From NCBI GenBank assembly GCA_040830765.1, contig JBFOMH010000001.1, positions 19,201-83,200 on the forward strand: a stretch of 64,000 nucleotides of DNA, read 5' to 3'. Made by a program: the position numbers and the translations under genes. Below the pieces are notes generated by a model. It searched no databases. It saw only the letters and a program-made list of their open reading frames with translations, and was not told the origin of the DNA. This document shows, piece after piece, positions 15,586-63,508 of the stretch. Source of the DNA: Puniceicoccaceae bacterium. Lineage in GTDB: Bacteria > Verrucomicrobiota > Verrucomicrobiia > Opitutales > Oceanipulchritudinaceae. Position 1 is the first letter of the stretch. Each line of letters begins with the position of its first letter.

Positions 15586-16665
15586 TCAGGTGCCAAGGTA
15601 CACCCAGGCTCCACTGGTGCTGACGTTTTCGCCGGGACAGAATATCCACTTGCCCAAGGAGACCGACCAGATCCACGGATCATTTTCCGCCCAGATCCAA
15701 CCAAGCCAGGGCGTGGTGTCGCAATAGCCATCTGGCCGGACCTCGTAGGGCCCAAACATGGTCGACGTGTTGAAGTTGATGGCCTCCTGCAATTCGTATC
15801 CGAGATCAAGTACCCAGTATTCGCCACACAGACCCAGTCCAACGGCTTTGATATCGGGATTTAGCAAAACCTCATTTTGCGGGGCACTGCTCACCCATGC
15901 CTGGAAAACGGAATCCACCGATGAAAATCCGAAGGCCAGAAGCTCAATGTTTAAAAAGTTATACCCAAATGCCTGGATGCGTTCATTACTGTCCCGTCCA
16001 AGGGAGTCGGTGCGGGAGAAATTCCCTGAAGACAGGATGTCATCCGCCATCCAGCGAGCGGATTCCAATAAAATGGAATCCCCTCCCACTGGATCGACAT
16101 TGTTCGATTCGCGGTGCTCGTTCAACAAGTTGACCAGCTGCTCCAGCTCCGCAAGCCCCGTCGGGTCTGGAATACTGACGAAATCGATCGTGTCCTGCAG
16201 GGTGTAGCCCAAATCCAGCACCCAGTAGGTTCCCGCCTTTCCCAATCCGATGGTCGCGATTTCCGGGCTCAACAGGACCGCATTGTGCTCGGTGCTTTCT
16301 ATCCATGCATCCAGAACATCGGAGACGACATTATACCCGAAGGCGAGCAGTTCAATACTGGTATGGTTGTAGCCGAATGCCTGGATCCGTTCCGCACTAT
16401 CCCGTTCCAGGGAATCTATGCGCGAAAAATTGCCTGAAACAAGAATATCCTCGGCCATCCATTGCGCTGAGGTTATCAAGTTTTCATCCCCACTCACAGG
16501 AGCCTGGCTGTTTGCTTCCCGGTGTTCATTCAACAACTGGATGAATGTTTCCAGTTGCTGGTAGTCCGGTCCTGAAATGTCCGCAATCATTCCAAGCGGG
16601 AAGTTTGCAATCGCGGCAAGAAGCAAATTTAACCTTACCAGCTTGTGGATTTGGAACTGTCGCAT
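15586..16665 (-). CDS. Secreted protein with two tandem CAP (SCP/PR-1)-like domains and the 57-aa W-rich C-terminal domain
   Basis: Two ~135-aa repeats LLNEHRE...SAxWMAxDIL.SGNFSR.DSL.RDS.ERIQAFGY...AW..S...LL.P....GLG...YWVLDLG; start uncertain (16665 or 16686). Confidence 0.82.
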   Translation of the reverse strand: MRQFQIHKLVRLNLLLAAIANFPLGMIADISGPDYQQLETFIQLLNEHREANSQAPVSGDENLITSAQWMAEDILVSGNFSRIDSLERDSAERIQAFGYNHTSIELLAFGYNVVSDVLDAWIESTEHNAVLLSPEIATIGLGKAGTYWVLDLGYTLQDTIDFVSIPDPTGLAELEQLVNLLNEHRESNNVDPVGGDSILLESARWMADDILSSGNFSRTDSLGRDSNERIQAFGYNFLNIELLAFGFSSVDSVFQAWVSSAPQNEVLLNPDIKAVGLGLCGEYWVLDLGYELQEAINFNTSTMFGPYEVRPDGYCDTTPWLGWIWAENDPWIWSVSLGKWIFCPGENVSTSGAWVYLGT

Positions 16666-16869
16666 CGGTACCTTTCTTCGGTTCAAAACGGCGCATATAA
16701 GCGTTTAGTATTACCTGTATAAACTTTCCTAATCGATTTGTGGCAAAAGTCCAGCCAGAGATGGCCTGACGACTGCCAGACGTTTGCTTGTGTTGGTAAA
16801 AACCTGATTGGCCGAACAGTGGAAGATGAAACACTTGCCACAGGAATCTAAATGCCTCATGAGGAGCAG

Positions 16870-17331
16870 ATGAAGATTGAAGGACTGCGCAGTGGATATG
16901 TGAAGGTCGGGGGAATGTTCCATTTTGCCCGCATGTGTGACAAAATCCGGCTCCATTCTGAAGGAAAGTTGCCGGAAGATTATCATTCGCTGCTGGGTGA
17001 TGGCTTCGATGGACGTGTGGTAAAGTTCTTCCGGGTCCCTTATGACAAGGTACGCGAGCTGGTCCTTTCCGGGCAATCTGATGAAGATGTCTTTGCCTGG
17101 TGCCAGGCCAACGGGCGGCATCTCTCGGAAGAGGACTTGCTCATCTTCAACAGCTTCATGTCCAAGCGCGGATGGCGGGATGAGCAGGAATTCGGACACA
17201 ATCAACAGGTGCGCAAGGAATACGGACTGGCCGACAATCCCGACATCCAGACCGACTTTGACCTGATTGAAGCGGACGAGGGGCGCCCACTGGATGCATG
17301 GAAGGACGCCTGGCGACCAGCTTCGGAATGA
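16870..17331 (+). CDS. DUF5069-like protein
   Basis: LRSGYVKVGGMFHFARMCDKIRLH..GKLPEDY...GFDG...FDLIEADEGR; GAGGAG precedes ATG 16870. Confidence 0.75.
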   Translation: MKIEGLRSGYVKVGGMFHFARMCDKIRLHSEGKLPEDYHSLLGDGFDGRVVKFFRVPYDKVRELVLSGQSDEDVFAWCQANGRHLSEEDLLIFNSFMSKRGWRDEQEFGHNQQVRKEYGLADNPDIQTDFDLIEADEGRPLDAWKDAWRPASE

Positions 17332-17335
17332 ATCC

Positions 17336-18085
17336 ATGCTTTTTTGGAACGGTAACAAATCACCTGTCCGGCAGCGCTATGAAAGCGAACTGCTACAGGC
17401 GATCCTTGATGCGTCCAGTCCGGTCTACGGTCCACTCGTCTTAAGCGAGGATCGGACGGACTATCCGCAGGCGGAGGACGAGGCGGATATCTTCAATAAA
17501 GGGGCAGATGTCACCGTGACGGTTGCCGGTAATCCGAAGTTCGCGGACCGGGACAAGTTGGTCATCGACCAGCCCATTGCCAAGGGAGTTTTGGGACAGC
17601 GGGTATTGATTATCCGGGAAGCTGACCAGGACGACTTTGCCGGTATCCACGAAGAGGCGGAATTGAAGGCCAAGGTGAGCGGCATTCCTGACACATGGGC
17701 CGATGTCGCCATCTTCGAAGCCAATGGCTATGCTGTGACGGAACGGGGTACGTTTGAGGACATCTTCCAGCGCCTCCGGCAGGGGCAGTTTGATTACGTC
17801 GCTCTTGGGGCTTTTGAGGTTAAGGATGTCTTCCAGTCAATGGCCCGAAGGGTTGGAGGCCTGGCTATTGAGAATTCCTTGATGCTGCAATACCCCATGC
17901 CGCTGGTCTTTTACGTGCACCCGGAGCGGGAGGAACTGGCCCACCGGATCATCGCTGGTCTGACCACGATTCAACGGAATGGCGTCCTGGATGCCCTTTT
18001 TACCTCCCACTTTGGCAAGGTTCTGCAAGACCTCTCTCTCGATCGCCGGACAGTTTTCCAACTACTTAATCCGCTTATTTCTTGA
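17336..18085 (+). CDS. Type II periplasmic-binding-fold protein (amino-acid ABC substrate-binding-like), no signal peptide
   Basis: PIAKGVLGQR, WADVAIF..NG, RL..GQFDY..LG..E, LQYPMPLVFYV, GL..I...G.LD.LF..HFG; start uncertain. Confidence 0.65.
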   Translation: MLFWNGNKSPVRQRYESELLQAILDASSPVYGPLVLSEDRTDYPQAEDEADIFNKGADVTVTVAGNPKFADRDKLVIDQPIAKGVLGQRVLIIREADQDDFAGIHEEAELKAKVSGIPDTWADVAIFEANGYAVTERGTFEDIFQRLRQGQFDYVALGAFEVKDVFQSMARRVGGLAIENSLMLQYPMPLVFYVHPEREELAHRIIAGLTTIQRNGVLDALFTSHFGKVLQDLSLDRRTVFQLLNPLIS

Positions 18086-18189
18086 GATCAGCCTTCTGGC
18101 CAGGGGAGGCACGATAACAGGCAATGAGCATTTAGATCTTCACCTTTTGGGGAAATTCCTGAGTAATCAATATCCGATCGTTGATCAAT

Positions 18190-19530
18190 ATGAACCGGAT
18201 CTATTCAAACAGGAATCACTGTCTAGCCTTTATACTCCTTGTTACTTTCGTGAATTGCCAAGTATCCGCACACCAACCGGATTCCGACCTGCATCACTGG
18301 GAAATCGCGAGCAAGGATCCGGACCGGATATTTCTCAGCTTTCATGGGGATCCCGCAACTACTCGGGCGGTGACCTGGCGGACCGATGCGACAATCGGGG
18401 AGGCCCAGGCACAAATTGCCCTGGTAACAGGGAATCCGAAATTCGACCGGAAAGCAAAGACCTTCACGACCACCACTGAGCCGGTGGAACTTACTCTGCA
18501 TGAGGGTAATAAACAGACCCTTGTCCACTATCATTCGGTGATTTTCGAGGACCTGTTACCGGACACCCTCTATGCCTATCGTGTGGGCAGCAGGAAGCAC
18601 TGGTCAGAATGGATCCAGTTCCGGACGGCCAAGGCGGAACCGGCGCCCTTCAGCTTTGTCTACTTTGGCGATGCCCAAAACGAGATTCTCGGGAAGTGGT
18701 CACGGGTCATTCGCATGTCCTACACAGTGGCACCGGAGGCCGCTTTTGCGATTCACGCCGGCGACCTGGTCAATAACGGCCACATGGATCTCGAATGGGC
18801 GGAATGGTTCAAGGCTGGTGGTTGGATCCACAGCCAGCGAACCGGGATCCCCGTTATTGGTAACCATGAATACCGGACTATCCCGGGAGTCTCCAAGGAA
18901 AAGGTAATTTCCTTAGTCTGGCGGCCTCAGTTCACTTTGCCGGAGGACCCTGCCCTGCCGGAAGCTCTTCGGGAGACGGTTTACACCATTGATTACCAGG
19001 GACTCCGGGTCATTGTCCTGAACTGCATCGACAATCCGGAAGCCCAGGCCGAGTACCTGCGCCAGCAATTGCAGCGACCGGGAGCCCAATGGACGGTGGT
19101 GACCTCCCACTATTCCATTTTCACACCCTACAAAAAGCGCAGTTTTTACGAGTCTTCAACCCTTTGGCTTCCAATCATAGAAGCGTTCGGTGTGGACCTC
19201 GTTTTACAGGGCCATGACCATGCCTACCTCCGCGGACACCAACCCATGCGGCATCAATCCCCGGGATTGAACAATTCCCTGCAGACGATGTTCGTCACAT
19301 CCATGAGCGGAGCGAAGCAGTATGCCATCACAAAGGAACGGGTGGAAGCCTATGCCCAGATGAACTACACCCCGGATAAAATGGGTGAACAGAAGCAGTT
19401 CTTCCAGGTAATTGGGGTGGACGGCCATGAACTGACTTACAGCGCCTACAGCGCTGATGGGGTCCTGTACGATCGGGCGGTCATTACAAAGGATCCGGAA
19501 ACAGGGTTGAAGCATCTTCAGAATCACTGA
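18190..19530 (+). CDS. Secreted purple-acid-phosphatase-like metallophosphoesterase (FN3 plus calcineurin-like domain)
   Basis: FGDAQ, HAGDLVN, GNHEY, VDLVLQGHDHAY; signal peptide. Confidence 0.88.
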   Translation: MNRIYSNRNHCLAFILLVTFVNCQVSAHQPDSDLHHWEIASKDPDRIFLSFHGDPATTRAVTWRTDATIGEAQAQIALVTGNPKFDRKAKTFTTTTEPVELTLHEGNKQTLVHYHSVIFEDLLPDTLYAYRVGSRKHWSEWIQFRTAKAEPAPFSFVYFGDAQNEILGKWSRVIRMSYTVAPEAAFAIHAGDLVNNGHMDLEWAEWFKAGGWIHSQRTGIPVIGNHEYRTIPGVSKEKVISLVWRPQFTLPEDPALPEALRETVYTIDYQGLRVIVLNCIDNPEAQAEYLRQQLQRPGAQWTVVTSHYSIFTPYKKRSFYESSTLWLPIIEAFGVDLVLQGHDHAYLRGHQPMRHQSPGLNNSLQTMFVTSMSGAKQYAITKERVEAYAQMNYTPDKMGEQKQFFQVIGVDGHELTYSAYSADGVLYDRAVITKDPETGLKHLQNH

Positions 19531-19570
19531 TACGCTTGGTTTTCTTTCCTGAGAACCCCCTTTTTTTTCA

Positions 19571-21337
19571 GTGATGCGCCTCTTTTTCCTGTCCATCTTC
19601 CTCGTCAGCGTCGCCTTCTGCATCCTACTATACTGGCTTTCCGGTCGTGGATTGGGCCGCAATGCCTATCTGGAGGCGCATGCCCCGGAATTTACTTCCC
19701 AATTCGGAGACGCCGTACTGGTCTTCAATCCCTCGATGGACATGGAGAGCGTCCAGAAGGTTCTCGATGCACTGCATATGCAGCAGCGGTACAATCAGTT
19801 CGGTCCTGAACGTTATGCCATCCTTTTTGAGCCAGGTGAATATGATCTGGAGATCAAGGTCGACTACTACGTCCATGCCATGGGCCTGGGAAGGCTGCCA
19901 AGCGATGTGCGGGTTAATGGCGTTGTCCAGTCCAGTACCAGCAAGGGAACAAACGAGAATGTCACGACCATGTTCTGGCGGGCTGCGGAAAACTTCCTTG
20001 TTGTACCCGATGAACCGGTCTACTGGGCGGTTTCCCAAGCAGCTCCTTATCGTCGCATGCACATCCAGGGTGATTTGCGACTAGACCTGGGTGGCTGGGC
20101 CAGCGGTGGTTACCTTGCCAATTCCATCATTGAGGGGCAGGCCGGATTGACCAGCGGTCAACAATGGTTCACCCGCAATTGTGAATTGGGCTCATGGGAA
20201 GGCGGTAACTGGAACCGCACCTTTCAAGGGACAGTCGGTGCCCCACCCGACACTTGGCCCTCCGAACCCACGACGGTCATCGAGAAAACCCCGGTCATCC
20301 GCGAAAAGCCCTTCCTGACTGTAGATGCAGAGGGCAACTATGCGGTTTTTGTCCCGGAACTGGTCCGGAACGCTGTAGGCGTCTCCTGGAAGGACGGCCC
20401 GGAACCGGGCGAGCTCGTGCCACTGGAAAACTTCCATATTGCCTTTCCCGGTACCGACGATGCGGCTTCCCTCAACAGGGCATTGGCGGAAGGAAAGCAT
20501 CTCCTCTTCACTCCTGGAATCTATTATCTGGAGGAGAGCATTCGTGTTGAAAGGGAAAACGCTATCCTCTTTGGACTTGGACTGCCGACGCTGGTTCCGC
20601 AATCCGGCCAGGCAGCCATCACTACGAAGGATGTTTCCGGGATCAAGCTTGTCGGCCTTATGGTGGATGCCGGATTGGAAGAATCCCCTGCCTTGATACA
20701 GATTGGTCCCGAGGGAGCAAACAGGGACCATTCAGAAAACCCCATCTCGCTCCACGATGTTTTTTGTCGGGTCGGTGGTTCCATACCGGGAAAGACCGAA
20801 GCCTGCCTCGTCGTGAACAGCAACCATGTCATCCTTGACCATGCCTGGCTCTGGCGTGCGGACCATGGGGCCGGAGCGGAATGGGATGTCAATACCTGCA
20901 AGAACGGTCTGGTTGTCAATGGCGACGATGTCACCGCCTATGGCCTCTTCAATGAACACTTTCAGGAATACCAGACCCTCTGGAACGGAGAACGGGGCCG
21001 GACCTATTTCTACCAGTCTGAAATCCCATATGATCCTCCCAGCCAGGAGCGCTGGATGAATAGAGACCGCAAAGGCTTCGCTTCCTACAAAGTCGCCGAT
21101 CATGTCGAGGACCACCACGCATGGGGACTCGGAATCTACAGCTTCTTCGGCGTAAGGGCCGGCAGGGACCTGGGTGTCCGGCTCGGCAGTGCCATCGAGT
21201 GTCCGGAGGCACCGGGTGTTCGTTTCACCCATGTCACGACCTTTGCCGGTTGGTTTGGGGGTATCGACCACCCGGTCAATGAGCTTGGGGATCCCACTAA
21301 TGCCCAGGCGCTGTTGTTTTTCGACGGTGTCCCCTGA
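19571..21337 (+). CDS. Bacterial GH55-like beta-1,3-glucanase (beta-helix) with N-terminal membrane anchor
   Basis: NQFGPERYAILFEPGEY, FWRAAEN, WAVSQAAPYRR, GWASGG, WLWRADHG, GLFNEHFQEYQTLWNGE.G.TYFYQSE.PYDPP. Confidence 0.75.
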   Translation: MMRLFFLSIFLVSVAFCILLYWLSGRGLGRNAYLEAHAPEFTSQFGDAVLVFNPSMDMESVQKVLDALHMQQRYNQFGPERYAILFEPGEYDLEIKVDYYVHAMGLGRLPSDVRVNGVVQSSTSKGTNENVTTMFWRAAENFLVVPDEPVYWAVSQAAPYRRMHIQGDLRLDLGGWASGGYLANSIIEGQAGLTSGQQWFTRNCELGSWEGGNWNRTFQGTVGAPPDTWPSEPTTVIEKTPVIREKPFLTVDAEGNYAVFVPELVRNAVGVSWKDGPEPGELVPLENFHIAFPGTDDAASLNRALAEGKHLLFTPGIYYLEESIRVERENAILFGLGLPTLVPQSGQAAITTKDVSGIKLVGLMVDAGLEESPALIQIGPEGANRDHSENPISLHDVFCRVGGSIPGKTEACLVVNSNHVILDHAWLWRADHGAGAEWDVNTCKNGLVVNGDDVTAYGLFNEHFQEYQTLWNGERGRTYFYQSEIPYDPPSQERWMNRDRKGFASYKVADHVEDHHAWGLGIYSFFGVRAGRDLGVRLGSAIECPEAPGVRFTHVTTFAGWFGGIDHPVNELGDPTNAQALLFFDGVP

Positions 21338-21359
21338 GACTGCTTTTAGTCCTTTCCTT

Positions 21360-21375: not shown

Positions 21376-21389
21376 TGTATTGCGGGTAG

Positions 21390-23830: not shown

Positions 23831-23840
23831 GCTACCGGGG

Positions 23841-50271: not shown

Positions 50272-50456
50272 GGGAGTAACCGTAACAGCCGAGTGCCCAG
50301 ATTCAACCTGTTTCAGAATGAGCGGTTATGCTGTCGATTCTATAAGTTCCTGAAAGTGCATTTATTACTTAAAAGTAAACAACTAATTGGTCTTCATACA
50401 GTTAGGTAAAGATACCAATTGTCGTACAAAGAATTGGGAGAATGCTTTCCGGCGTT

Positions 50457-52154
50457 ATGAAACGCTTCCCCAAAAGTGCCAGCATCCTCTTCATCACAGC
50501 CCTCGTTGCGGGCCCCTACGCAGAGGCGCGTCCCTTTGAAATTATCGCGCAATCGGACCCGAAAATCACCACGCACCAACTCCAGTCCGGCGATTTTACC
50601 CTCGGGGTGACGGATTTGGGCGGTGGCTCCATCAATATGATGCGACTCCCGGGCGTTGGTGACATTTCCACCCAGGAAGCGGACCGGTATGGCCGAATGG
50701 GACAAATGGCGGTGCGGGACAGCCTCCACGGCGGTCGCTACAATCCCACGCAGGCGGGATTCTACGAAACGCTTGGGACGCAATGCGAAATCACCACCAC
50801 CCCTGGCAAGCTGACCCTTGAGCCGCGGGGAATCGCCCTCTGGCACGGCGATGGCCAGTACGACTTTACCGAGTGGGAGAACATCGGGAGAGACCCCTAT
50901 GGTAGTGATGGTGGCAATACAGACGAGGACGGATTGGATGAATCCAGCCTCTCCGTGATCATCAACGGCCGTACCTTCACCAAGCAGGAGGCCGAGGTCT
51001 ACAGCGAGTATGACTTCTACGGCAACTACGAGGACTACAAGGGCAAACTGGGCATCGAGACCTCCGCCATCCGTCATTATGCGGAGTTCCGCTTTATCCG
51101 GGAACCCGGCCATTGCGTCTACCAGCACCGTGAAGGCACCAAGCTCTACAATCCTGCCCTGATTCAGGGAGACATTTCGGTTGAAAAACCTGCCGGTACC
51201 CACCGTGGGACCGAGGGCGAGCTAAGCAATCCAATCAAGGCATGGAACATTCGCTACGACAATGTCGAGTGGAACGCGCCCTATCGCTGGGTCAACCAGA
51301 GCAGTACCCAGTGGTCAGTCGAGCAGCGCAGCTCGCGCATCTACCGGGTCGACAACCCGGCCCGGGCCGCCATTATCATTTCCGAGTCCTCAAATGCTGA
51401 CATTGGCCGGGCAATGGGCATTTACTATCCGAAGTCGGAGGTCAATAACTACCCGGTGATTGGTGTTGTCGAGGCCAACGGAAGCATCGCCTACAAGGAT
51501 CCCCGGACAAACCTCATCAAGGCGGTTGATGATCCCACGGTCGTCCGTGGTGACATGTCGAAGATTGGATTCACGACCCGCATTCGCGGCATGATTGACC
51601 GGAGCCGGCTTGCCCCGGGGGTCTACGAGACCTGGCGGGAAGAATACTTCATCTTTTACGGCACCCCGCGCCAAATCATGAATGCCATCGCGGCCTACGA
51701 GGCACCGAAAATTTCCCAGACGATTACCTTTGCCCCGCTGGAAACGGCTGCAGTCGGTGAGGCAGACAGGATTTTGTCAGCCACTGCCACCTCCGGCTTG
51801 CCGGTCAGTTATTACAGTTCGGATCCAGATGTGGCAGTCGTCAACGGCAACACCCTGCAGTTTGTCGGTCCCGGAGAGGCAACTATCACGGCAATTCAAG
51901 GCGGGAGCCTGAATTTCAACATTGCCCCCGATGTTGAGCGAACCCTCGTTGTCACCGGTGAGGTCATCGGAGGAGGCCAATGGGCCGGTTACGACATCGT
52001 CAGTGAACAGTTCGTTGATACCATGGGCTGGATGGGTTGGCTGAATATCGCCAATGAGCCCTACATCTACTCGGAATCACTGACGCAATGGATCTACCTT
52101 CAGGAAGACCAGGTCAGCCAATCCGGTGCATGGTCCTACCTGTTCAACTACTGA
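50457..52154 (+). CDS. Secreted protein: uncharacterised N-terminal domain, Ig-like domain and the 57-aa W-rich C-terminal domain
   Basis: Signal peptide; SQTITFAPL...SATATSGLPVSY..S...VA...G.GEATITA.Q.G Ig-like repeat; WAGY tail. Confidence 0.78.
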   Translation: MKRFPKSASILFITALVAGPYAEARPFEIIAQSDPKITTHQLQSGDFTLGVTDLGGGSINMMRLPGVGDISTQEADRYGRMGQMAVRDSLHGGRYNPTQAGFYETLGTQCEITTTPGKLTLEPRGIALWHGDGQYDFTEWENIGRDPYGSDGGNTDEDGLDESSLSVIINGRTFTKQEAEVYSEYDFYGNYEDYKGKLGIETSAIRHYAEFRFIREPGHCVYQHREGTKLYNPALIQGDISVEKPAGTHRGTEGELSNPIKAWNIRYDNVEWNAPYRWVNQSSTQWSVEQRSSRIYRVDNPARAAIIISESSNADIGRAMGIYYPKSEVNNYPVIGVVEANGSIAYKDPRTNLIKAVDDPTVVRGDMSKIGFTTRIRGMIDRSRLAPGVYETWREEYFIFYGTPRQIMNAIAAYEAPKISQTITFAPLETAAVGEADRILSATATSGLPVSYYSSDPDVAVVNGNTLQFVGPGEATITAIQGGSLNFNIAPDVERTLVVTGEVIGGGQWAGYDIVSEQFVDTMGWMGWLNIANEPYIYSESLTQWIYLQEDQVSQSGAWSYLFNY

Positions 52155-53442: not shown

Positions 53443-54645
53443 ATGAACACAAAAACAAACCTGTTATTCATACTGGCTATTACCAGCGCCCCACTCTGTC
53501 CGGCTGCCTCGATGGTTATTCTGGATGTCGGTGGCGGACCATCGGGCCTGTCTGCGGATGGAAGTTACCTCATCGGCTCCGATTCCTCCGGACCCTACCG
53601 CTGGAACAATGGCAACGTCCTCTATCTCAGTGAATCGACCAGTGTCCAGCTTAGTGACCTCTCAGCTGACGGCCAAATCCTGGTCGGAACGGAATTCCCA
53701 ACGGCCTTTCAGTGGGAAAACGGCATTCGGACAGATCTTCAGTTGCCCTTTGTGATCAATCCCCGGACTGTTGCCACGGCCATTTCCGCCGATGGAACGG
53801 TCATCGTGGGCAATTATTCCCCTCCCATTAATGGCACAGGCGGACCTGAAGCGATTATGTGGAAGGATGGCGTATTTTTGCCATTGGGAAAATTGAACGA
53901 GAACGGCGAAAGTTATGCCACCGATGTCTCAGGCGATGGTTCCATCATCGTTGGCCGGGCCCATCCAGCCGATACAACAGATGACTGGGTTACCTTCCGT
54001 TGGGAGAGCGGGACCATGAGCAGTCTGGGGCATCCGCAGGAAGGCAATGCACGGACGACCGCCAGTGCCATTTCCAGCGATGGGAGTTTCATTGTCGGCT
54101 CAACGGAGTTCAGCGATACTGATGAGCGCGCCTTCGTTTGGGAAAGTGATGCCTTCACCATCCTCCCCCATCCGGATCCGTCAAGTGTCGGAAGCCGGGT
54201 CCTTGATGTCTCTGGGGACGGTTCTGTGCTGGTCGGTTATACTAACTTCCCTGGCGATTGGAGTTACCCGGCAATCTGGTTTTACGATAACGTGTATACC
54301 GCAAGGCTGCTCGTCGATTACCTTGCAGAGATAGGCATTGTGATTGGAGACTTTGAGATATTTGAACTCACCGACGTGAGTTCTGACGGGTCCACCATCG
54401 CCGGAGTTGGCTGGTATCCGACAGAAGGCACTAACCGGCCCTTTATCGTCCGCTTAACCGAGTCCCAGGAATGGGCCGGCTACGAGGTCCTGCCGGACGG
54501 ACAAAGCGTCAACACAGAGGGATTTCTTGGTTACATTGACATCTCCCAGACGCCCTGGGTCTGGGTTTACGGACTCGGGACCTATGTCTACATGGATGAG
54601 TCCTATGTCACTGCCTCCGGTGGCTGGCTCTGGCTGCCGCAATGA
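53443..54645 (+). CDS. Secreted HAF-type extracellular-repeat (beta-propeller) protein with the 57-aa W-rich C-terminal domain
   Basis: About 7 repeats of [IVL]S.DG..[IL][VIA]G...AF.W; signal peptide. Confidence 0.82.
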   Translation: MNTKTNLLFILAITSAPLCPAASMVILDVGGGPSGLSADGSYLIGSDSSGPYRWNNGNVLYLSESTSVQLSDLSADGQILVGTEFPTAFQWENGIRTDLQLPFVINPRTVATAISADGTVIVGNYSPPINGTGGPEAIMWKDGVFLPLGKLNENGESYATDVSGDGSIIVGRAHPADTTDDWVTFRWESGTMSSLGHPQEGNARTTASAISSDGSFIVGSTEFSDTDERAFVWESDAFTILPHPDPSSVGSRVLDVSGDGSVLVGYTNFPGDWSYPAIWFYDNVYTARLLVDYLAEIGIVIGDFEIFELTDVSSDGSTIAGVGWYPTEGTNRPFIVRLTESQEWAGYEVLPDGQSVNTEGFLGYIDISQTPWVWVYGLGTYVYMDESYVTASGGWLWLPQ

Positions 54646-54798: not shown

Positions 54799-57700
54799 AT
54801 GTTTAGGAGGTTTTATACTTGTGTGCCCAGTCCTCTATCAACAATTGGCAATTCCTTTTCGGTAAAAAGACATAGGCAGGCTTTTGTCGGACTCATTTCA
54901 CTCACAATAATCTTGGGCAACGCCATATCCTGCTGGGCGGAGGGCATTAAATATCAAATAGGCCCCATACAACACGATGAACCGAGGGAAGTGAATTTTG
55001 CCTTTGTCGATCTCCCAGGCAGCCCGGATCAATCAGACAATCATTATTACTTCCAAGGGAGTTATCCAAGTCCTGTAGGAGAAGTTGCAGAGGATGAGGG
55101 ATGGAAGTTCGGTTTCCCCGGGTTCATCAGAAAAAGCCCATTAAACTTCTACCTCTATCTTCCGTATCTGGACGATCACTCACTGGACGGGAGAGTGACT
55201 ATCCTCGTCAACACAACAGGGCTTTCGATAAGTAATGACAATACTCATGAGTGGATTGAGGAAAACGTATACGGCACATTGGGAATATTCCACAATGGAG
55301 TCTCCACCGGATTGAATTTTGAGATAGAAAACCGATTTGCCCTGCACTCAGGAAGCTTCCTGATGAAACCGCCCGGGGAATTCGGATTCAATTATATCGA
55401 GCTGAGGATGATTGACTATGGCGTTAGAGACTCCGGTTCAACCGACCCACTCACTCCATGGTTGTCGATGGACATGATTGAAGTGATAGTGGAACCGTAT
55501 TATTACGAGGATAGGGATCAGGATGGATTGCCGAGGTCATGGGAAGAAGATAACCTGCTGGATGACAACAACCCGGCCGATGCCCTTCTGGATCTCGACG
55601 GCGATGGCAGCAATAACCTTCAAGAGTATGAGGACGGAACCTTCATCCGCGCGAGGGACACAGACGGCGACGGACTCCTGGATGGAGAAGAAGTTTTAAG
55701 TGATCCCTTAAAGCAGGATACTGACGATGATGGCGTAAGTGACTATGCGGAAGTCAAGGGATCCATATTGTCGGACCCGACTAAGGAGGATTCCGATGAA
55801 GATGGGAGTTATGATGCCTGGGAACTGGCAACAGGATTCGATCCGATGGATCCAGATGAAACGCCTCCTCTTTTTGAAGGAGCCATAGGCATTAACTTTA
55901 TTGTTTATGGACCAACCAGGAATTCGAAAGTCCTTGCCAACCAAGTTGCCGGTGTTGTTCCACAATTAAACTGGAACAACATACCTTTGGGTTTCGAAGA
56001 GATAAACAACGCGGTATTTTCGCCTGCGACATCAACTGGAGGGACTTCCAGTGCCACCGTGGCCCTGAATATCAAAAATGCTGAATACTATTTCGAGGAA
56101 ACGACGGACTACAGGCCATCTGAGAAACTCTTCCAACCCCTGTTCAAGGATCCAGTAAATCTTGCATTTGACACGACCATTTCGGTCACAGACATCCCCT
56201 ATTCTCTATACGATGTTATTGTTTACGTGAGTGGCGGTAGTCTGATCCTCACAGCCGGTGACAGTGACGGAACGATCATCATTAACGACGATTCCGAGAC
56301 AGCAGCAACTTTCAGGCCCAATCCCTTGAATATTCATGACATGGCTTTCCAAAGGATTTTGCCAGGCCTTCACAATGGTCAACAGGCAGGTAATTATATC
56401 CGGTATTCAAATCTTTCCGACCCATCTCTGAAAATCGAACTGGTTCATGGTGAGAGTGAGGACTTCGGATCACACAATGGGATAAGTGCAGTTCAGATTG
56501 TCGATATGGCAACAGATACTGATGAGGACGGACTTCCCGATAACTGGGAAATCGAGCATGGCCTGCATCTTCACGAACCAGGCGATGCAGGGCTTGATAT
56601 CGACGAGGATGGGTTGAGCGCACTGGAAGAATTTGGTCGCGATACAGATCCAAGGTTGAAGGATACCGATGGGGACGGTCTTTCGGACAAGGTTGAGTCC
56701 GGTTCAGGAATCTACATCAGCCTGGAGGACACCGGCACCAATCCCCGGAATCCTGACACGGACAATGACCGTCTTTCCGACAGGGATGAAGTTTATTCGA
56801 CTTTCGTGGCAAGTAATCCCAATTTGTATGATACTGACGGCGATGGCCTGAACGACCGGGAGGAGCTTGAAGCCGGAACCCATCCACTCAGCTCTCCGGA
56901 TTTAAGGCCCGCATTTCCAACCGTGAACATGCAAGGCACTGAAGTCAGGTGGACGATAGATAACCTGCAAATATTCACCAACCGGACAGAAAGCGTGTCC
57001 GCTGCCATTTTTAACATTTTCATGTCCCTCAATGAGCGCTCGACTGAAGTGACCGTTGATCTTTCGATTTCTGAAGATACCCAGTCGATTATTCCCGCTT
57101 TCACCATGAGTGGGCCTGACTTTTTCACACATCAGGACTTTGGGACCTATAACCGTCATTCATTCGGAATGCAATTGGGTGAACCGAACTGGGAAATATT
57201 CGGCCTCTTGAATTTGCCCATCCCACAATTGTCGGACCGCCTAAAATTCGACATCCTATTTTCACGGGAGGACGTTGTTGAGAATATGTGGATTCTGGAC
57301 CTTTCCGTCTTCAATTATGACCTTGGCGAAATTATCTACGAGGAAAGCGTGTCCGGTTTCATCGCCTCGCCTGAAGTGCTGAGTGGGCTCCTTGAATGGT
57401 CGGCTGACGGGGAAACCCATCCGAAAGTATCAACCGCCGGCAATACGGAAGTTCTGTTTTCAGCCGAGCCTGTTGCCTTGCATCCAAAGTGGTCCATTTA
57501 CCGTGACAATGACGATGATGGTTTACTGGATGAGTGGGAGAAGGCCTATGGATATCCGACCGATCTCTACAATGACCCATTGGCTGATTCGGATTTGGAC
57601 GGACTCAGGGAATACGAGGAGAGCCTGCTCAACCTGAATCCAAGCAGCAGTGATTCAGATATGGATGGAATCGGGGACCGGGAAGATGCTTTTGCCTACG

Positions 57701-59904
57701 GTGCCGGTAACTTCAATTTGCCCAAGTATGCATTTGCCGATTACGCTATCTTTTCGCGAGATACGGATTTTAACAATAACGGACTGGATGACATCTGGGA
57801 AAGTAGCTTCGGGTTTTCCGGAATCGACCTACTCGAGGATTCTGATGGGGATGGCTATCCGGTCTTGGAGGAAGAAAAACACGGTACGGATCCGTTTGAT
57901 CCGGACTCCCACCCCGGCCTCACCATCGAGCAGGATGCCCTGGATATCCGCCTGAGATGGTCTGCAAAACGACTGAAACCCTACTCCTTCCAGAAAACCG
58001 TTGATTTTCAGGATTGGTCAACGTCCGTTGCAGGAACGGAATTCCCACATGAATCCATGATTGTAATGGCCGATCCTGTCACTGGAGAATTCCCGCTTTA
58101 TCGCGTTATCACACAAAGCGTCGATTTTGATGGAGACGGGATTGAATCATGGGCTGAGGACCTGCTCGGCCTTTCCGATGAGACACCCGACACGTTCATC
58201 GGGTCCCAGTCCTTTGACTCAGACGGAGACGGAACGCCTGATTTTGAATTACCTGGTGACGTCATTCAGGTTTACGAGAGCCTTAATGACGTACAATTGG
58301 CAGAGAACGGCATTTCACTCGAGGACGCCTCCAGATTCCTGACCCAGGCAACCTTTGGGCCAACCATGACCTCGATCAATCAGGTCCGAAAACAGGGGTA
58401 CGAATCCTGGATCGATGAGCAAATTCAAAATGTGGCGCCCAGCCTGCTCTTCCCGGCGGTCAACGAATATTTCAAGGATTACGTTTCCCATCGCCTGGAC
58501 TTGAGTCTCAATGATGTTTTCTCAGGTCAACGGTACTTTGTTTCCGCCTGGACACAATCCATGCTGACGGCCCCAGACCAGGTCAGGCAGAGGGTTGCCT
58601 ACGCACTGAGTCAAATCGTTGTCATTTCCTATGCTGAGGACGAATTGGCCACAAATCCACGCAGCATGGCAGCTTATTATGACATGCTGGTAGAAAACGC
58701 CTTCGGTAATTATTACGATATCCTACGGCATGTCACGTTCAGCCCCCTGATGGGGGTATACCTTTCCCATTTGGGAAATCAAAAAGCCAGGCCCGAGATT
58801 AATCTCTTTCCGGATGAGAACTATGCCCGTGAACTAATGCAGCTGTTCACTATCGGTCTTTGGGAGTTAAATGAGGATGGCACTCAAAAACTAGACCTGC
58901 AGGGAAATCCCATTCCAAGCTATGGCCTACGGGAAGTTACAGAACTTGCGCGCGTTATGACCGGATTCTGGATAAGCGGTCAGGCCTGGGGGGAGACAGC
59001 TGAAATCGGATGGAATAACATGAATGGGAGCCGACCGATGATTATGTATCCTGAACGGCACGACTTCGGGGAAAAGGTGCTTCTGAATGGCTATGTCATT
59101 CCCGCACGTGTTGCCACTGCCGAAAACGGATACAAGGACATAGAGAATGCTCTCCAGCATCTGTTTTACCATCCCAATACGCCAGTATTTATTTCAAAGC
59201 AGCTGATCCAGTTCATGGTCACAGACAACCCGTCGGGCGACTATGTTCAACGTATCCAGAATGTCTTCGTCGATAACGGGCATGGTGTCCGGGGGGATCT
59301 GGGGGCTGTTGTAAAGGCAATCCTGCTGGACCCGGAAGCAAGAAGCCTGGTTACTGCACAGGATGATCCTTTCTTCGGAAGACTGCGGGAGCCCAGCATA
59401 CGACTCATTGGATTGGGTCGAGCCTTTGGAGTGGGTTTTGAGGATTACTTCCAATGGATCGGGAACAACCAGTTCCACTCCGCAACCTACCAGCAGCCAA
59501 TGAGCTCGCCATCGCGTTTCAACTTTTATCCTCCAAGTTTCACACCAACGGGTATCCTGGCGAACAATGGGAAAGTTGGACCTGTTTTCAAAATCACTGA
59601 TTCTATTTCCTCGATAGCCCTTCCGAATCTATTCTGGGAAATTTTGATTGAATCCTTTTCTGAGCCGATAAATGAAGCACCGAAAATCTTTCTGAATTTC
59701 GGTGATTATCTACCCATGGAAGAAGAACACGCAATCATTGTCGACCGAATGAACCTCATTTTCTGCCAGGGTCAAATGACTTCTGTCACTCGTTCCAACA
59801 TTCTGACTGCCCTTGGCCAACTGGCGAACCCACAACCTGGGGTCGTGACCATCCTCGCTGCTTATCTGGCGGCCATCAGTCCGGAAAGCGCAGTGTTACG
59901 TTAA
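54799..59904 (+). CDS. Giant DUF1800-family protein with many DxDxDG (TSP3-like Ca-binding) repeats
   Basis: C-terminal ASRFLTQATFGPT, DQVRQRVAYALSQIVVIS, MGVYLSHLGN, PDENYARELMQLFTIGL, HPNTPVFI...LIQ..VT.NPS..YV.R, GDLGAVVKAILLDPEAR, LREP. Confidence 0.9.
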   Translation: MFRRFYTCVPSPLSTIGNSFSVKRHRQAFVGLISLTIILGNAISCWAEGIKYQIGPIQHDEPREVNFAFVDLPGSPDQSDNHYYFQGSYPSPVGEVAEDEGWKFGFPGFIRKSPLNFYLYLPYLDDHSLDGRVTILVNTTGLSISNDNTHEWIEENVYGTLGIFHNGVSTGLNFEIENRFALHSGSFLMKPPGEFGFNYIELRMIDYGVRDSGSTDPLTPWLSMDMIEVIVEPYYYEDRDQDGLPRSWEEDNLLDDNNPADALLDLDGDGSNNLQEYEDGTFIRARDTDGDGLLDGEEVLSDPLKQDTDDDGVSDYAEVKGSILSDPTKEDSDEDGSYDAWELATGFDPMDPDETPPLFEGAIGINFIVYGPTRNSKVLANQVAGVVPQLNWNNIPLGFEEINNAVFSPATSTGGTSSATVALNIKNAEYYFEETTDYRPSEKLFQPLFKDPVNLAFDTTISVTDIPYSLYDVIVYVSGGSLILTAGDSDGTIIINDDSETAATFRPNPLNIHDMAFQRILPGLHNGQQAGNYIRYSNLSDPSLKIELVHGESEDFGSHNGISAVQIVDMATDTDEDGLPDNWEIEHGLHLHEPGDAGLDIDEDGLSALEEFGRDTDPRLKDTDGDGLSDKVESGSGIYISLEDTGTNPRNPDTDNDRLSDRDEVYSTFVASNPNLYDTDGDGLNDREELEAGTHPLSSPDLRPAFPTVNMQGTEVRWTIDNLQIFTNRTESVSAAIFNIFMSLNERSTEVTVDLSISEDTQSIIPAFTMSGPDFFTHQDFGTYNRHSFGMQLGEPNWEIFGLLNLPIPQLSDRLKFDILFSREDVVENMWILDLSVFNYDLGEIIYEESVSGFIASPEVLSGLLEWSADGETHPKVSTAGNTEVLFSAEPVALHPKWSIYRDNDDDGLLDEWEKAYGYPTDLYNDPLADSDLDGLREYEESLLNLNPSSSDSDMDGIGDREDAFAYGAGNFNLPKYAFADYAIFSRDTDFNNNGLDDIWESSFGFSGIDLLEDSDGDGYPVLEEEKHGTDPFDPDSHPGLTIEQDALDIRLRWSAKRLKPYSFQKTVDFQDWSTSVAGTEFPHESMIVMADPVTGEFPLYRVITQSVDFDGDGIESWAEDLLGLSDETPDTFIGSQSFDSDGDGTPDFELPGDVIQVYESLNDVQLAENGISLEDASRFLTQATFGPTMTSINQVRKQGYESWIDEQIQNVAPSLLFPAVNEYFKDYVSHRLDLSLNDVFSGQRYFVSAWTQSMLTAPDQVRQRVAYALSQIVVISYAEDELATNPRSMAAYYDMLVENAFGNYYDILRHVTFSPLMGVYLSHLGNQKARPEINLFPDENYARELMQLFTIGLWELNEDGTQKLDLQGNPIPSYGLREVTELARVMTGFWISGQAWGETAEIGWNNMNGSRPMIMYPERHDFGEKVLLNGYVIPARVATAENGYKDIENALQHLFYHPNTPVFISKQLIQFMVTDNPSGDYVQRIQNVFVDNGHGVRGDLGAVVKAILLDPEARSLVTAQDDPFFGRLREPSIRLIGLGRAFGVGFEDYFQWIGNNQFHSATYQQPMSSPSRFNFYPPSFTPTGILANNGKVGPVFKITDSISSIALPNLFWEILIESFSEPINEAPKIFLNFGDYLPMEEEHAIIVDRMNLIFCQGQMTSVTRSNILTALGQLANPQPGVVTILAAYLAAISPESAVLR

Positions 59905-59923
59905 CTTTAAACAAGTATCATAC

Positions 59924-61372
59924 ATGAAAAAAGGGCCTTACATTTCACGTCGACGCTTTGTCAAGAACAGCTGTTGCGGGGCAATGTCTTCCATCCCGGT
60001 ATTATCCATGCTGTTGAATCTTAAGTTGGCCAATAATGCGGCGGCCACGCAGATCAGTTCCTTCAACCCTTCGGGCGATTATAAGACATTGGTCTGTGCT
60101 TTCATGGAGGGAGGCAACGACTCGTTTAACATGTTGGTCCCGACAGACAATGAGCGCTATGGTATTTACCAGACATCTCGCAGTAATCTGGCCTTGCAGA
60201 GGGAGTTTTTGTTGCCACTGGACCAGCTGCCCGATGGCGACGGACTCGAATACGGGCTACATCCAAACGCTCATGGATTGCAGGAATTGTTCAATGGACT
60301 GGGAGGTGATCCCGGTAAACGGAGGCTCTCCTTCATTGCAAATATCGGAACCTTAGTTGAACCGACCACCCTGGCACAGTTTAAAGACAGCAATTCCGGA
60401 GTACGGCTACCAAAAGGTCTTGGCTCTCATCTGGATCAACAGGTGCAGTGGCAAACATCCGTTCCTCAAGGTTTGCCAAACCTGAGCGGATGGGGAGGCC
60501 GGATTGCCGATATTTTAAACAGCCAGTACAATGCTGAGAAAATCGGAATGAACATGAGTCTCTTCGGGAACAATGTGTTTCAATCAGGAAATAATTATAC
60601 CCAATACGCTGTTTTTGAAAAAGGTGGTGTAGTACTATCCGCGAACACAAACCAAGGAGACCCAACCTTTCTCAAGAACGTGGCCTTTAAATCCATCCTG
60701 GAGCAAGAGTATCACAACCTGGTTCGCTCCAGCTTCAGCGAAGTCGTGACGGAAAGCCTGGAGCAATCGGAGTTCCTTACCTCCGAGTTCAATAACTTCG
60801 ACGATTCTACAATATCAGGTCAATTTCCCAGCACACCATTGGGAGCCCAGTTCAAACTGGCAGTAAAAGTTATTGCCTTAAGGGAGAGGCTCGGCCTGCG
60901 CCGCCAAACCCTGTTCTTAAACGGGGGCGACTTCGATACCCACCTCGACCTGCTCGGTGTTCAGGCGAAAAACATGACGGATTGGGGTGAAAGTATGCGC
61001 GCCTTTCAAAATTCTCTTGAAGATCTTGGCCTCCAGGACTCCGTGGTGACATTTGTCGCTTCCGACTTCGGGCGCACCCTGCGCTCCAACGGAAGGGGTA
61101 CCGACCATGCCTGGGGAGGGAATACAATGGTGATGGGCGGTCCAGTGGAGGGCGGAAGAATTTTCGGGACCTATCCTAACCTGACCTTGGACGGCCCCGA
61201 TGATATTGGAGCAGGCGGTCGTATCCTTCCCACGACCTCAGTAGATGTCATGTTCGCTGAATTGGCGATGTGGTTTGGCGTTTCCAACGGCGATCTCCCG
61301 ACCATATTTCCCAACTTAGGGAATTTCTACAGCATCGGCAGTGGCAACCCGTTGGGCATTCTGTCACTTTGA
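59924..61372 (+). CDS. DUF1501-family Tat-exported protein
   Basis: SRRRFVK Tat motif; YKTLVC.F.EGGNDSFN, SH.DQ..QWQ, GW.GR.AD, FDTH, SDFGRT..SNG.GTDHAWG. Confidence 0.9.
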   Translation: MKKGPYISRRRFVKNSCCGAMSSIPVLSMLLNLKLANNAAATQISSFNPSGDYKTLVCAFMEGGNDSFNMLVPTDNERYGIYQTSRSNLALQREFLLPLDQLPDGDGLEYGLHPNAHGLQELFNGLGGDPGKRRLSFIANIGTLVEPTTLAQFKDSNSGVRLPKGLGSHLDQQVQWQTSVPQGLPNLSGWGGRIADILNSQYNAEKIGMNMSLFGNNVFQSGNNYTQYAVFEKGGVVLSANTNQGDPTFLKNVAFKSILEQEYHNLVRSSFSEVVTESLEQSEFLTSEFNNFDDSTISGQFPSTPLGAQFKLAVKVIALRERLGLRRQTLFLNGGDFDTHLDLLGVQAKNMTDWGESMRAFQNSLEDLGLQDSVVTFVASDFGRTLRSNGRGTDHAWGGNTMVMGGPVEGGRIFGTYPNLTLDGPDDIGAGGRILPTTSVDVMFAELAMWFGVSNGDLPTIFPNLGNFYSIGSGNPLGILSL

Positions 61373-61380
61373 CATCCGGG

Positions 61381-61920
61381 ATGAGCCATAAGCGGACTCA
61401 CTTTCTTGTCGGAATTCTTGCTTTTATTCTATTGCTGGCTCTCTTCCTTTTGTGGATTTCGTTCAAGGAAAGAAACCATCAAAACGAGACACAATTTGCC
61501 GTTCACGACCCGCAAAAGCTAACCCCTCAACAGGATAGTTCATTATTCGGGGATCGGATTCTTGAAGGATATGGTACAGATCAAATTGCACCCGAGGAGG
61601 ACATAAGAAGAATGGGTCAATTACTGTGGAGCTACCGTCAGATGGCCAAGGGTGTTGATCACTCTTTCTTTTCCGCAAACGAGGACATTGCGAAGTTGTT
61701 TACCGGAGATGGAGTTGTCGGCATTCAGGCAATTTCCAGGGATCACCCGTGTTTGAGAAACGGAAAAATTGTCGACAGGTGGGATAGTCCGCTGCTTTTC
61801 CACTCCATCAGCGGTTCGAAAATTGACATCCATTCAGCCGGTCCGGACAGGACTATGGGTACAGAGGATGATGTCAGCCTGGCCGGGCAGATCATCTTCA
61901 AGGGCAAGCCCTCTTTTTGA
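61381..61920 (+). CDS. Single-TM hypothetical protein with GspG/pseudopilin-like C-terminal motif
   Basis: N-terminal TM; DRWDSP..F...IHSAGPD..MGTEDD resembles the T2SSG motif D.WG..Y...S.GPDG..GT.DD. Confidence 0.6.
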   Translation: MSHKRTHFLVGILAFILLLALFLLWISFKERNHQNETQFAVHDPQKLTPQQDSSLFGDRILEGYGTDQIAPEEDIRRMGQLLWSYRQMAKGVDHSFFSANEDIAKLFTGDGVVGIQAISRDHPCLRNGKIVDRWDSPLLFHSISGSKIDIHSAGPDRTMGTEDDVSLAGQIIFKGKPSF

Positions 61921-61996
61921 CAGGCTACCTGACTCAAAGGGTATGGCGTTAGTAAGTAATCAAAGGCGAAGGATCCGAACCCCTAAACCGCAAATT

Positions 61997-63508
61997 CTAT
62001 CCCGGTACATAAGCCCAGGCACCGGTTGGGCTGACAAGGGACTCTGGAAGATACAACCAGACAGCAAGGGCGTAGTTGTAGATCCATGGATCGAGGGAAA
62101 TATCGATCCAGCCGATGAAGGATCCGGTATCGACGCTCTTCCCATCTTCCTCGACAGGAAAGTGGGCCCAGTTCTTCCTGCGCATCCAGTCGGGGCCGAC
62201 ATCATCCGGCGTCAGCGGGGCCGGTAACTCCGTGGCCGGTGGCTCACCAAGCTCGACCCCGGTTGAAATATAGGAATTAGACAGCTGGGCATCGCCCTTG
62301 CCAATGTTGCCGTTCCATTCGATTCCACTGTAGTCGGAGCGCTCCTGATAAAACATGAGGCCGGTGTCTGCCAGGACGACGTTTTCCCTGACAAGGATGT
62401 CATGCAGAAACGTACCGCCCGGTCCGCCACCGCCTATGCGGACGCCCCGACCTGACGAACCACTAATCCAGTTGGCTTCGATGGTGCAGTTGAAGGTCTC
62501 CGCGTAGCTGTTGTCGATACCCTGTCCAGTCCCTCCCGGGATAATGATCCCATCCTCAACGTTGTTGATGTAGTTTCCCTTGATAACATGCGCACTGCCG
62601 TAGGCCCGGATACCGGAACCGTCGAAGTAATTGCCCTCGACGAGACTGTCGATGCCACCCCGGATAGTGAGATTGGTTCCCGGTCGGTTGCCAACAAACG
62701 TGTTGTGCCGGTAGATGTTCCCGGCCGACTTATTGGAAATCAATTCCGGATCGCAATCCCCGTCCATGTTCTCGATGAGGTTGTATTCAACCACGGTTCG
62801 GTTGTAGGTCTTTCCCTGGGTGCGTGCGTTTTGTCCAACCTGTATCGGTTCCTGCCCGTTGCTTTCCCCGTCACTGACGGTCCGGTTGATCCGGTTGTGG
62901 TGGATGTGGTTGTTGGTATTGTTGCCCGAACCGGTGACGCCAATTCCCTGGCCGATGATATCCTCAAGATAGCACCATGCCACTTCGCAATTCTGACTGT
63001 TACCAATGATGCGGATGATGTGAGACCACTTTTCGAACCCACATCGATAAAAGGCACAGTTAACCAGTTTGGAATGGCTGGCGTTTTCGAAGGCAATCAC
63101 GTTGCTGCCCACTCCCATGTGCGGAACCGAGGAAAAGATAAATCCGTCGACCACAACATGGTCCGCTCGAAATTGTATACCGGAATTATGAGTAAAGGTC
63201 ACTGCTCCGCCCTTTTCCGCCCTGAATACGATCGGGTCCTCCTCGGTTCCATTGCGAGAGAGGATAACCCGGAAATTGGCATAGCTGCCCTCCGCCAGGA
63301 CGATTTCATCGCCGGGATTGGCCGCATCCAGTGCGGTCTGGGCCTCCTCGGCTGAGGTGACCATAATAGTCTCCGCAAACGCCGTGCCAACAAACATGCT
63401 TGCTGGCACGGTTATAAGGGCAGCAATTTGAGTTCCTCTTTTCCTAAGGAGTGCTGTCAGCCCATCTGCTATAGTAGCCATCTTCTGGAAATTTGTTGGC
63501 ACCGGCAT
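61997..63508 (-). CDS. PL6-like (chondroitinase B/alginate lyase) beta-helix protein with the 57-aa W-rich C-terminal domain
   Basis: ANPGDEIVLAEGSY, GT...PI.FRAE..G.V, NGQEPIQVG, VEYNL.E..DG..E.ISNKS..N.YR.NTF, L..R.G....VEGN.F; start may be 63481. Confidence 0.8.
   Translation of the reverse strand: MPVPTNFQKMATIADGLTALLRKRGTQIAALITVPASMFVGTAFAETIMVTSAEEAQTALDAANPGDEIVLAEGSYANFRVILSRNGTEEDPIVFRAEKGGAVTFTHNSGIQFRADHVVVDGFIFSSVPHMGVGSNVIAFENASHSKLVNCAFYRCGFEKWSHIIRIIGNSQNCEVAWCYLEDIIGQGIGVTGSGNNTNNHIHHNRINRTVSDGESNGQEPIQVGQNARTQGKTYNRTVVEYNLIENMDGDCDPELISNKSAGNIYRHNTFVGNRPGTNLTIRGGIDSLVEGNYFDGSGIRAYGSAHVIKGNYINNVEDGIIIPGGTGQGIDNSYAETFNCTIEANWISGSSGRGVRIGGGGPGGTFLHDILVRENVVLADTGLMFYQERSDYSGIEWNGNIGKGDAQLSNSYISTGVELGEPPATELPAPLTPDDVGPDWMRRKNWAHFPVEEDGKSVDTGSFIGWIDISLDPWIYNYALAVWLYLPESLVSPTGAWAYVPG

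Follow-up and report, generated by a model that had tools for sequence, protein, structure and literature searches.

Four secreted proteins encoded in a 64,000-nucleotide stretch of a Puniceicoccaceae bacterium genome (the window; C1:19201–83200 of a 3.99 Mb assembly with 40 contigs and 56% G+C) end in the same Trp-rich module, referred to here as the type-A module. We found this module on 55 open reading frames (ORFs) of the genome, mostly at the extreme C-terminus, often in tandem and on proteins of very different kinds. We put at about one half the probability that it is a non-covalent surface-retention or docking module and not a cleaved sorting signal.

The four tails, as quoted in the first-pass annotation of the window, are exact letter-for-letter translations of the DNA, each running to a stop codon, and, as that annotation had read from the sequences, they have neither a transmembrane (TM) helix nor a basic tail. 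When aligned, they show 36–39% identity to the first tail and seven invariant columns (T, G, P, L, V, G, W), a similarity far above chance. The first copy (15586..15759, minus strand, 57 residues plus stop) forms the C-terminus of a secreted protein with two CAP/YkwD domains (15586..16686, minus strand; ORF C1|-|47297|48412), which were identified by PF00188 (4e-18, two stretches) and TIGR02909 (4e-24). This copy is matched by the hidden Markov model (HMM) of the module with an i-Evalue of 4e-20 and ends 2 residues before the stop. The likely start of the gene is the ATG at 16665, giving MRQFQIHKLVRLNLLLAAIANFPLG..., and the N-terminus is signal-peptide-like by eye, falling below the threshold of our own crude heuristic, which looks for a basic n-region and a hydrophobic stretch. 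The second copy (51981..52154, plus strand; i-Evalue 4e-20, ending 3 residues before the stop) belongs to a 570-residue protein with a Sec-type N-terminus that passes the heuristic (50442..52154, plus strand). No significant Pfam family was found on this protein, in which a Big_2-like stretch scored below the cut-off (E 0.084). The third copy (54472..54645, plus strand; i-Evalue 2e-17, ending 2 residues before the stop) closes a HAF-repeat protein of ~400 residues (53443..54645, plus strand; TIGR02913 at 9e-13, three stretches), for which a signal-peptide-like ATG start within a frame open from 52891 gives MNTKTNLLFILAITSAPLCPAAS.... The fourth copy (61997..62170, minus strand; i-Evalue 1e-19, ending 2 residues before the stop) closes a right-handed beta-helix lyase of the Chondroitinase_B (PL6) type with a Sec-type N-terminus (61997..63508, minus strand; PF14592 at 4e-31). 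In the database and Atlas record of this lyase (455 residues), the start lies 48 residues downstream of the first ATG; it was probably called too late, because the shorter frame lacks the Sec-type N-terminus encoded by the longer one. The earlier description of unrelated cargo on the four tails stands for the two CAP domains, the HAF repeats and the PL6-like lyase, but the call of an Ig-like domain on the 570-residue protein is weak. Likewise, Sec-type signal peptides, which had been ascribed to all four proteins, are supported by the heuristic in 3/4, with the CAP protein left to inspection by eye.

To take the census of the module, the HMM was built from the four tails and iterated over all stop-to-stop frames of at least 50 residues in the genome. 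The first pass retrieved 50 further ORFs with full-sequence E-values down to 1e-37, and after convergence the search comprised 69 copies on 55 ORFs with individual E-values from 1e-10 to 1e-21, bearing out the expectation of many more copies genome-wide. The density from which that expectation had been drawn, four copies in 64 kb, reflects a mild clustering (0.88 copies expected; Poisson P=0.013). One of the ORFs, L046 (C5:68295-68507), is a 70-residue open frame that consists nearly entirely of one module copy (E 2e-21) and lacks a signal peptide; possible origins are a gene remnant and a mis-assembled end.

The module had been described as strictly terminal, which holds for all four window copies and for 50/55 ORFs, in which the last copy ends 1–5 residues before the stop. 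In four other ORFs, the module is N-proximal and followed by 470–560 residues, and in the remaining one 40 residues extend beyond the last copy and look by eye like a degenerate half copy. At such N-proximal or internal positions, a signal that has to be C-terminal would be unreadable. The same distribution was seen among the top 150 matches in a set of database cluster representatives, with the module no more than 6 residues from the end in 134 and internal in 10. Two copies are present in 14/55 ORFs, as four terminal full pairs, six terminal arrangements of a full copy plus a half, and four internal pairs. Internal copies are always paired (4/4 in the genome and 10/10 among the top 150 representatives), and this association is significant whichever way the half copies are counted (Fisher P 0.003 or 0.0002). 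Most linkers that join tandem copies have 11–16 residues. The first and second copies of a tandem share one consensus, and when the 40 single terminal modules were scored against the copy-1 and copy-2 profiles, 21 were closer to one and 19 to the other. Upstream of the module we found neither a conserved motif, including any of a cleavage type, nor a long linker. The terminal residue of the proteins is not conserved either, the tails ending in ...G[AG]W.Y.. plus 1–3 residues. Together, the position, the pairing, the shared consensus and the motif results indicate that the module behaves as a folded domain for binding or pairing rather than as a linear C-terminal signal.

Structure prediction is consistent with such a domain. 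The 51981–52154 copy, which is row 1 of our 58-copy alignment A2, was folded with AlphaFold2 using that alignment, and the resulting model is compact and all-beta with a mean predicted local distance difference test score (pLDDT) of 94.3 and a predicted template modelling score (pTM) of 0.78. A tandem pair, modelled by AlphaFold from a 48-row alignment checked by eye, reached a mean pLDDT of 96.8 and a pTM of 0.88, and helical content in the models is limited to 3-residue turns. The 10-residue linker of the pair is also above 90 pLDDT; given this confident linker and the quality of the pair model, the two tandem modules are predicted to pack as one rigid body. Foldseek found no counterpart in the PDB for either model, the best E-values being 4.8 (single module) and 3.1 (pair). 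In VIA-align against 48,161 chains, the highest Z was 2.8 for the single module (PipX, root-mean-square deviation 3.2, 46 residues aligned; OCRE domains at 2.6–2.7) and 3.1 for the pair (a PDZ domain, deviation 2.5, 53 residues aligned). Because these matches are ties among unrelated folds, we do not name a fold, and the absence of a structural match does not prove a new one. A profile search of PDB sequences with type A found nothing below E 0.1.

The first-pass annotation had matched the tails to none of the domains it recognised, and catalogue searches agree with it. Neither Pfam-A nor NCBIfam contains a family that matches the four tails at E up to 1, and no Pfam family covers the tail at E up to 1e-4 in any of the 55 full-length proteins. 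A word-indexed search with one tail returned its own protein as the sole match. The taxonomic range was examined with alignment A2. Type A was found in 23/24 other genomes of the same GTDB family, with a maximum of 79 matches in one genome; it is weak in two genera of the family (three matches at 3e-5 and one at 4e-4) and absent from one 80%-complete genome. It was found in 0/16 genomes from the sister families of the order, and when the phylum was sampled evenly (E up to 1e-5), all five genomes of the family were positive and 0/295 others were. The module is thus confined to one family of Verrucomicrobiota among the genomes searched, as the proposal of a lineage-specific system had it. Among 1.84 billion cluster representatives, 1,064 matches were obtained at E up to 0.001; the named sources were Puniceicoccaceae metagenome-assembled genomes, Puniceicoccales bacterium CK1056 and Oceanipulchritudo sp., and the matched proteins are annotated as hypothetical or by the name of their cargo. 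In the full-text literature searched, which is limited in coverage, no paper describes this domain.

Nearly all carriers have a Sec-type N-terminus, as had been anticipated: the heuristic detected one in 49/55 module ORFs, and most of the others look similar by eye or are fragments. Their cargo is highly diverse. Pfam families for glycan degradation include glycoside hydrolases (GH16 x3, GH10, GH88 x2, GH95), polysaccharide lyases (PL1 x2, PL6) and heparinase II/III, and further glycan-related cargo comprises a sulfatase, two FGE-sulfatases, BNR_4 and the carbohydrate-binding modules (CBMs) CBM6, CBM9 and CBM96, all three of which are located in the cargo, outside the tail. Other cargo has no relation to glycan breakdown: a multihaem cytochrome (MtrC/MtrF-like), RCC1, two BspA-type leucine-rich repeat (LRR) proteins, CAP, cadherin, a GDSL lipase, DUF4465 and GSDH. 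About half of the identifiable cargo is a carbohydrate-active enzyme (CAZyme) or sulfatase, and 27/55 ORFs have no Pfam family on their cargo. In other Verrucomicrobiota represented in the ESM Atlas, the cargo extends to S1 peptidases, FN3 domains and a 5'-nucleotidase, again with no named family on the tail. The same tail is found on diverse Pfam families across the 55 ORFs, which upholds its description as cargo-independent, and the occurrence of one consensus on such varied cargo indicates one common binding target. The cytochrome (L005, C17:118028-119677) is a multihaem c-type protein with the MtrC/MtrF-like domain and the module at its end. MtrC-type cytochromes function at the cell surface. 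The module on L005 is a hint that a surface electron-transfer protein may be tethered by it.

The module shares its genome with another terminal element, PEP-CTERM, of which we found 18 tails (TIGR02595) together with three exosortase genes. These 18 served as the same-genome positive control for the NCBIfam search, TIGR02595 included, in which the four module tails had no match at E up to 1. Comparison of the cargo parts with all frames of the genome revealed exchanges between the two elements. Next to the module protein L002 is a paralogue that shares 57% identity with it over 215 residues and has PEP-CTERM at its end, and L035, L036 and L037 have an adjacent PEP-CTERM-tailed paralogue that is 59–64% identical over ~258 residues. 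The PEP-CTERM paralogues end in ...LVMYRRRKA and ...VVLWQRRA, whereas the module tails have no such TM-plus-basic end. The module is interchangeable with PEP-CTERM, a known surface-sorting tail. Paralogues with yet other aromatic tails were found for HAF, LRR, RCC1, GH88 and PL6 cargo, and HAF-repeat proteins elsewhere usually have PEP-CTERM at the end. Across the family, the counts of module and PEP-CTERM matches are uncorrelated (rho 0.10, P 0.63, n=25, with related genomes that are not independent), and three genomes (G013, G006 and G008) have 28, 29 and 16 module matches versus 1, 2 and 2 PEP-CTERM matches. Because of these uncorrelated counts and the three genomes with 16–29 modules next to one or two PEP-CTERM tails, the module is independent of exosortase. 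One exosortase gene (C9:103685-104575) lies less than 2 kb from a secretin gene (C9:106388-106891) in a minus-strand region (C9:103685-106891).

Module genes are also enriched beside genes of TonB-dependent transporters. A blind test of neighbouring families gave weak signals with these transporters on top (best 5/8, uncorrected P 0.002). When all 26 Plug-domain transporter genes were inspected, seven had a module gene as immediate neighbour, six of these pairs being co-oriented with gaps of 17–194 bp; the binomial probability of at least seven in 51 neighbour slots is 3e-5 (53 module genes among 3,024 crude genes). Of the other Plug-domain genes, two lie beside a PEP-CTERM gene and about five beside a gene whose product has another aromatic tail. 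BLAST detected no similarity among the small cargo domains adjacent to transporters, nor between them and the PEP-CTERM protein of the window. A precedent exists for a tailed exoprotein working with TonB-dependent transporters: ZepA is a PEP-CTERM exoprotein with genes of such transporters in its genomic context (PMC10957091).

These observations suggest how the module may work. Sec would take module proteins through the inner membrane, and a general route would take them through the outer one; the genome encodes three secretins. The module would then bind a lineage-specific component of the envelope, either a glycan or a protein, by which enzymes, binding proteins and the MtrC-like cytochrome would be kept on the cell, close to the outer-membrane transporters. 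It is predicted to act as a two-module unit, and single-copy proteins may pair with each other and so provide the second module. The first-pass annotation had left the choice between an export signal and a surface-glycan-binding anchor; the anchor fits better, as the module is predicted to fold, occurs in tandem and internally and lacks a cleavage motif. Several points weigh against surface retention, which we infer. The extreme C-terminal placement in 91% of the ORFs is equally expected of a sorting signal, and the CAZyme-rich cargo, with N-terminal module pairs on two pectate lyases, is as expected for a substrate-binding CBM. Transporter adjacency covers just 7/55 module genes, with no other neighbour family enriched, and the PEP-CTERM swaps are limited to two paralogue groups (4/55 proteins). 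The predicted rigid pairing comes from one AlphaFold model with its 48-row alignment, and the signal-peptide calls were made by a crude heuristic instead of a trained predictor.

Among the alternatives, the one that survives best, which we nevertheless regard as unlikely, is that the module is a substrate-targeting CBM that binds algal or particle polysaccharide and concentrates secreted enzymes on the food, not on the cell. It would account for the large share of CAZymes and sulfatases in the cargo, for a small aromatic-rich beta domain at enzyme termini, for the N-terminal module pairs on the two PL1 pectate lyases and the module next to CBM9, and for module genes beside TonB-dependent transporter genes in loci resembling polysaccharide utilisation loci (PULs); tandem copies are also common among CBMs. 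However, the same consensus occurs on a multihaem cytochrome, CAP, RCC1, LRR, cadherin and HAF proteins and, elsewhere, on S1 peptidases and a nucleotidase, and what replaces the module in adjacent paralogues is PEP-CTERM, a sorting tail of cell-associated proteins. None of the Pfam CBM HMMs matched the four tails at E up to 1. A CBM directed at a common marine glycan is usually found in several phyla, whereas the module is restricted to one bacterial family, a range more in keeping with a ligand specific to the lineage than with an algal polysaccharide of wide occurrence.

Still less probable, and overlapping in part with retention on the surface, is that the module serves protein–protein docking or oligomerisation, either dockerin-like or by dimerisation, so that multi-enzyme complexes are assembled. 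The predicted rigid packing of tandem modules (pTM 0.88), the strict pairing of internal copies and the equal resemblance of single modules to either tandem position are what such a domain might show. Like type I dockerins (PF00404), the module has around 60 residues, is mostly C-terminal and is carried in each genome by dozens of CAZymes together with some proteins of other kinds, and the internally duplicated logic of dockerins has a parallel here in the two-module unit. In size, placement and number of carriers it is close to the dockerins of clostridia. On the other hand, dockerins are helical, calcium-binding duplicated F-hands, unlike the predicted all-beta module, and the four tails do not match PF00404 at E up to 1. 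Intermolecular pairing is putative, and the analysis of gene neighbourhoods pointed to no candidate for a cohesin-like receptor or a scaffold.

Last, a C-terminal secretion or sorting signal for a dedicated outer-membrane translocon or sortase, with the tail possibly removed afterwards, would agree with the extreme C-terminal position in 50/55 ORFs and 134/150 top representatives, the cargo-independent and lineage-restricted occurrence on dozens of carriers per genome, the swaps with PEP-CTERM and the precedent of the C-terminal domain (CTD) of the type IX secretion system (T9SS), likewise a folded beta domain, but it is the least probable of the three, since full copies occur in tandem, N-proximal pairs are followed by 470–560 residues of cargo, no cleavage motif, TM helix, basic tail or terminal residue is conserved, the neighbourhood analysis found no translocon, peptidase or other conserved machinery, and the counts are unrelated to those of exosortase substrates.

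With respect to known systems, the genome logic of the module would be most like that of PEP-CTERM and the T9SS CTD, and its mode of action most like that of Gram-positive envelope-binding modules or dockerin, both by analogy. The T9SS CTD (Por_Secre_tail, PF18962/TIGR04183) is a folded beta domain of about 80–100 residues that is likewise C-terminal on many unrelated secreted enzymes and adhesins of one lineage, in its case the Bacteroidota. In contrast, the module has ~55 residues and occurs in tandem (two copies in 14/55 ORFs) and N-proximally (4/55). The four tails gave no match to PF18962 or TIGR04183 at E up to 1, and no T9SS CTD structure, an Ig-like beta-sandwich, is among the structural matches of the single or pair model, which does not speak against such a fold. 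A whole-genome search with PF18962 gave no match, the control set being equally silent, and we know of no T9SS in Verrucomicrobiota. Choline-binding repeats (PF01473), ChW repeats (PF07538) and SLH domains resemble the module in being aromatic-rich, often multicopy, located at either end of the protein and directed to a lineage-specific envelope polymer, but they belong to Gram-positive systems while the host of the module is diderm. There is no match to them in sequence or fold, and for PF01473 and PF07538 the four tails gave no Pfam match at E up to 1. PEP-CTERM tails (Haft et al. 2006, PMC1569441) resemble the module in being cargo-independent, C-terminal and attached to Sec-exported proteins, dozens per genome, and both tails are found directly beside TonB-dependent transporter genes. 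The module differs from them in having no Pro-Glu-Pro motif, hydrophobic helix or basic tail, and in being, as predicted, a folded 55-residue domain with tandem and internal copies.

A second tail, type B, was detected with the skeleton FY.YD..LG.W.W....YP.hY......W.YY..G....RWFYDY..G.W. A profile that contained no type-A protein located it on 27 further ORFs, 24 of them with a terminal and three with an N-proximal copy, bringing types A and B together to 82 proteins. No type-B tail lies within the window, and one of the 27 ORFs is just upstream of it (C1:15839-17863). Type B has no Pfam name either. Profile–profile comparison related it to type A with probabilities of 87.8% (E 3e-6, 36 columns) and 93% (E 3.5e-7, 38 columns), and type B is probably a distant relative of the type-A module. 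It was found in 23/24 genomes of the family, including the two genera without clear type A, and in 3/16 from the sister families; because of this slightly wider range, type A seems to be a branch, specific to the family, of a tail that is somewhat older. The type-B motif (…YD..lg.W.w…) resembles a Kelch hairpin, and individual propeller blades figure among the weak structural matches to the single module. However, all Kelch matches are below the family cut-offs, with 2/27 type-B ORFs matched by PF01344 (best E 0.006) and no type-A match at E up to 1, and the two-module model matched no propeller, which does not speak against one. An apparent homology of type B to the designed SAKe6 Kelch propellers (E 5e-5) was rejected, as the E-value comes from adding up six identical 18-residue hairpins worth 3.4 bits apiece. 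A third element that sits at C-termini independently of the cargo, with ~70 residues (…S.DL..W…(F/W)FR(I/L)…) was noticed on ~10 ORFs, in eight of them at the terminus; some of these ORFs are paralogous to LRR, GH16, sulfatase and heparinase proteins that bear the module.

Two regions of the window deserve a description of their own. A PUL-like operon on the plus strand (7383-14351) has a TonB-dependent transporter gene (8315-11320) whose three neighbours end in three different C-terminal tails: a PEP-CTERM protein (7383-8279), a 374-residue protein (11370-12494) with the aromatic tail ...NYVYIYGADWHYWTPEGEFLKI, which neither the type-A nor the type-B HMM matches, and a 605-residue protein (12534-14351) with a '...LFWRIKV...' tail, one of the carriers of the third element. 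Between two of the module genes (54799-61372, plus strand), the window encodes a 1,701-residue protein that contains a TSP3 repeat and has a DUF1800 domain at its C-terminus, followed by a DUF1501 protein; the DUF1800/DUF1501 pair is widespread and uncharacterised.

Tails that are common to many secreted proteins and determine their placement are known in kind, whereas the catalogues scanned and the literature searched contain no description of this domain family, of the two-module unit predicted for it or of its confinement to Puniceicoccaceae. Annotation pipelines leave unnamed the sole feature that these proteins have in common, and its fold is worth solving. For the family, the module is a sequence tag for predicting the surface and exo-proteome, and it is also a candidate handle for enzyme display. 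Puniceicoccaceae are counted with those marine Verrucomicrobiota that are considered specialists in degrading sulfated algal polysaccharides (PMC8857213). The papers searched do not explain how these diderm bacteria hold dozens of secreted enzymes on the cell without the lipoprotein or T9SS logic of Bacteroidota. As a more speculative proposal, which we hold only tentatively, the module could be the handle of an unrecognised surface-display system of Puniceicoccaceae, in which a two-module unit, its fold having no counterpart among solved structures, docks dozens of enzymes, binding proteins and a cytochrome on one lineage-specific envelope receptor beside TonB-dependent transporters. If true, it would be a verrucomicrobial counterpart of the cellulosome dockerin or the T9SS anchor that evolved beside the PEP-CTERM/exosortase system and partly replaced it.

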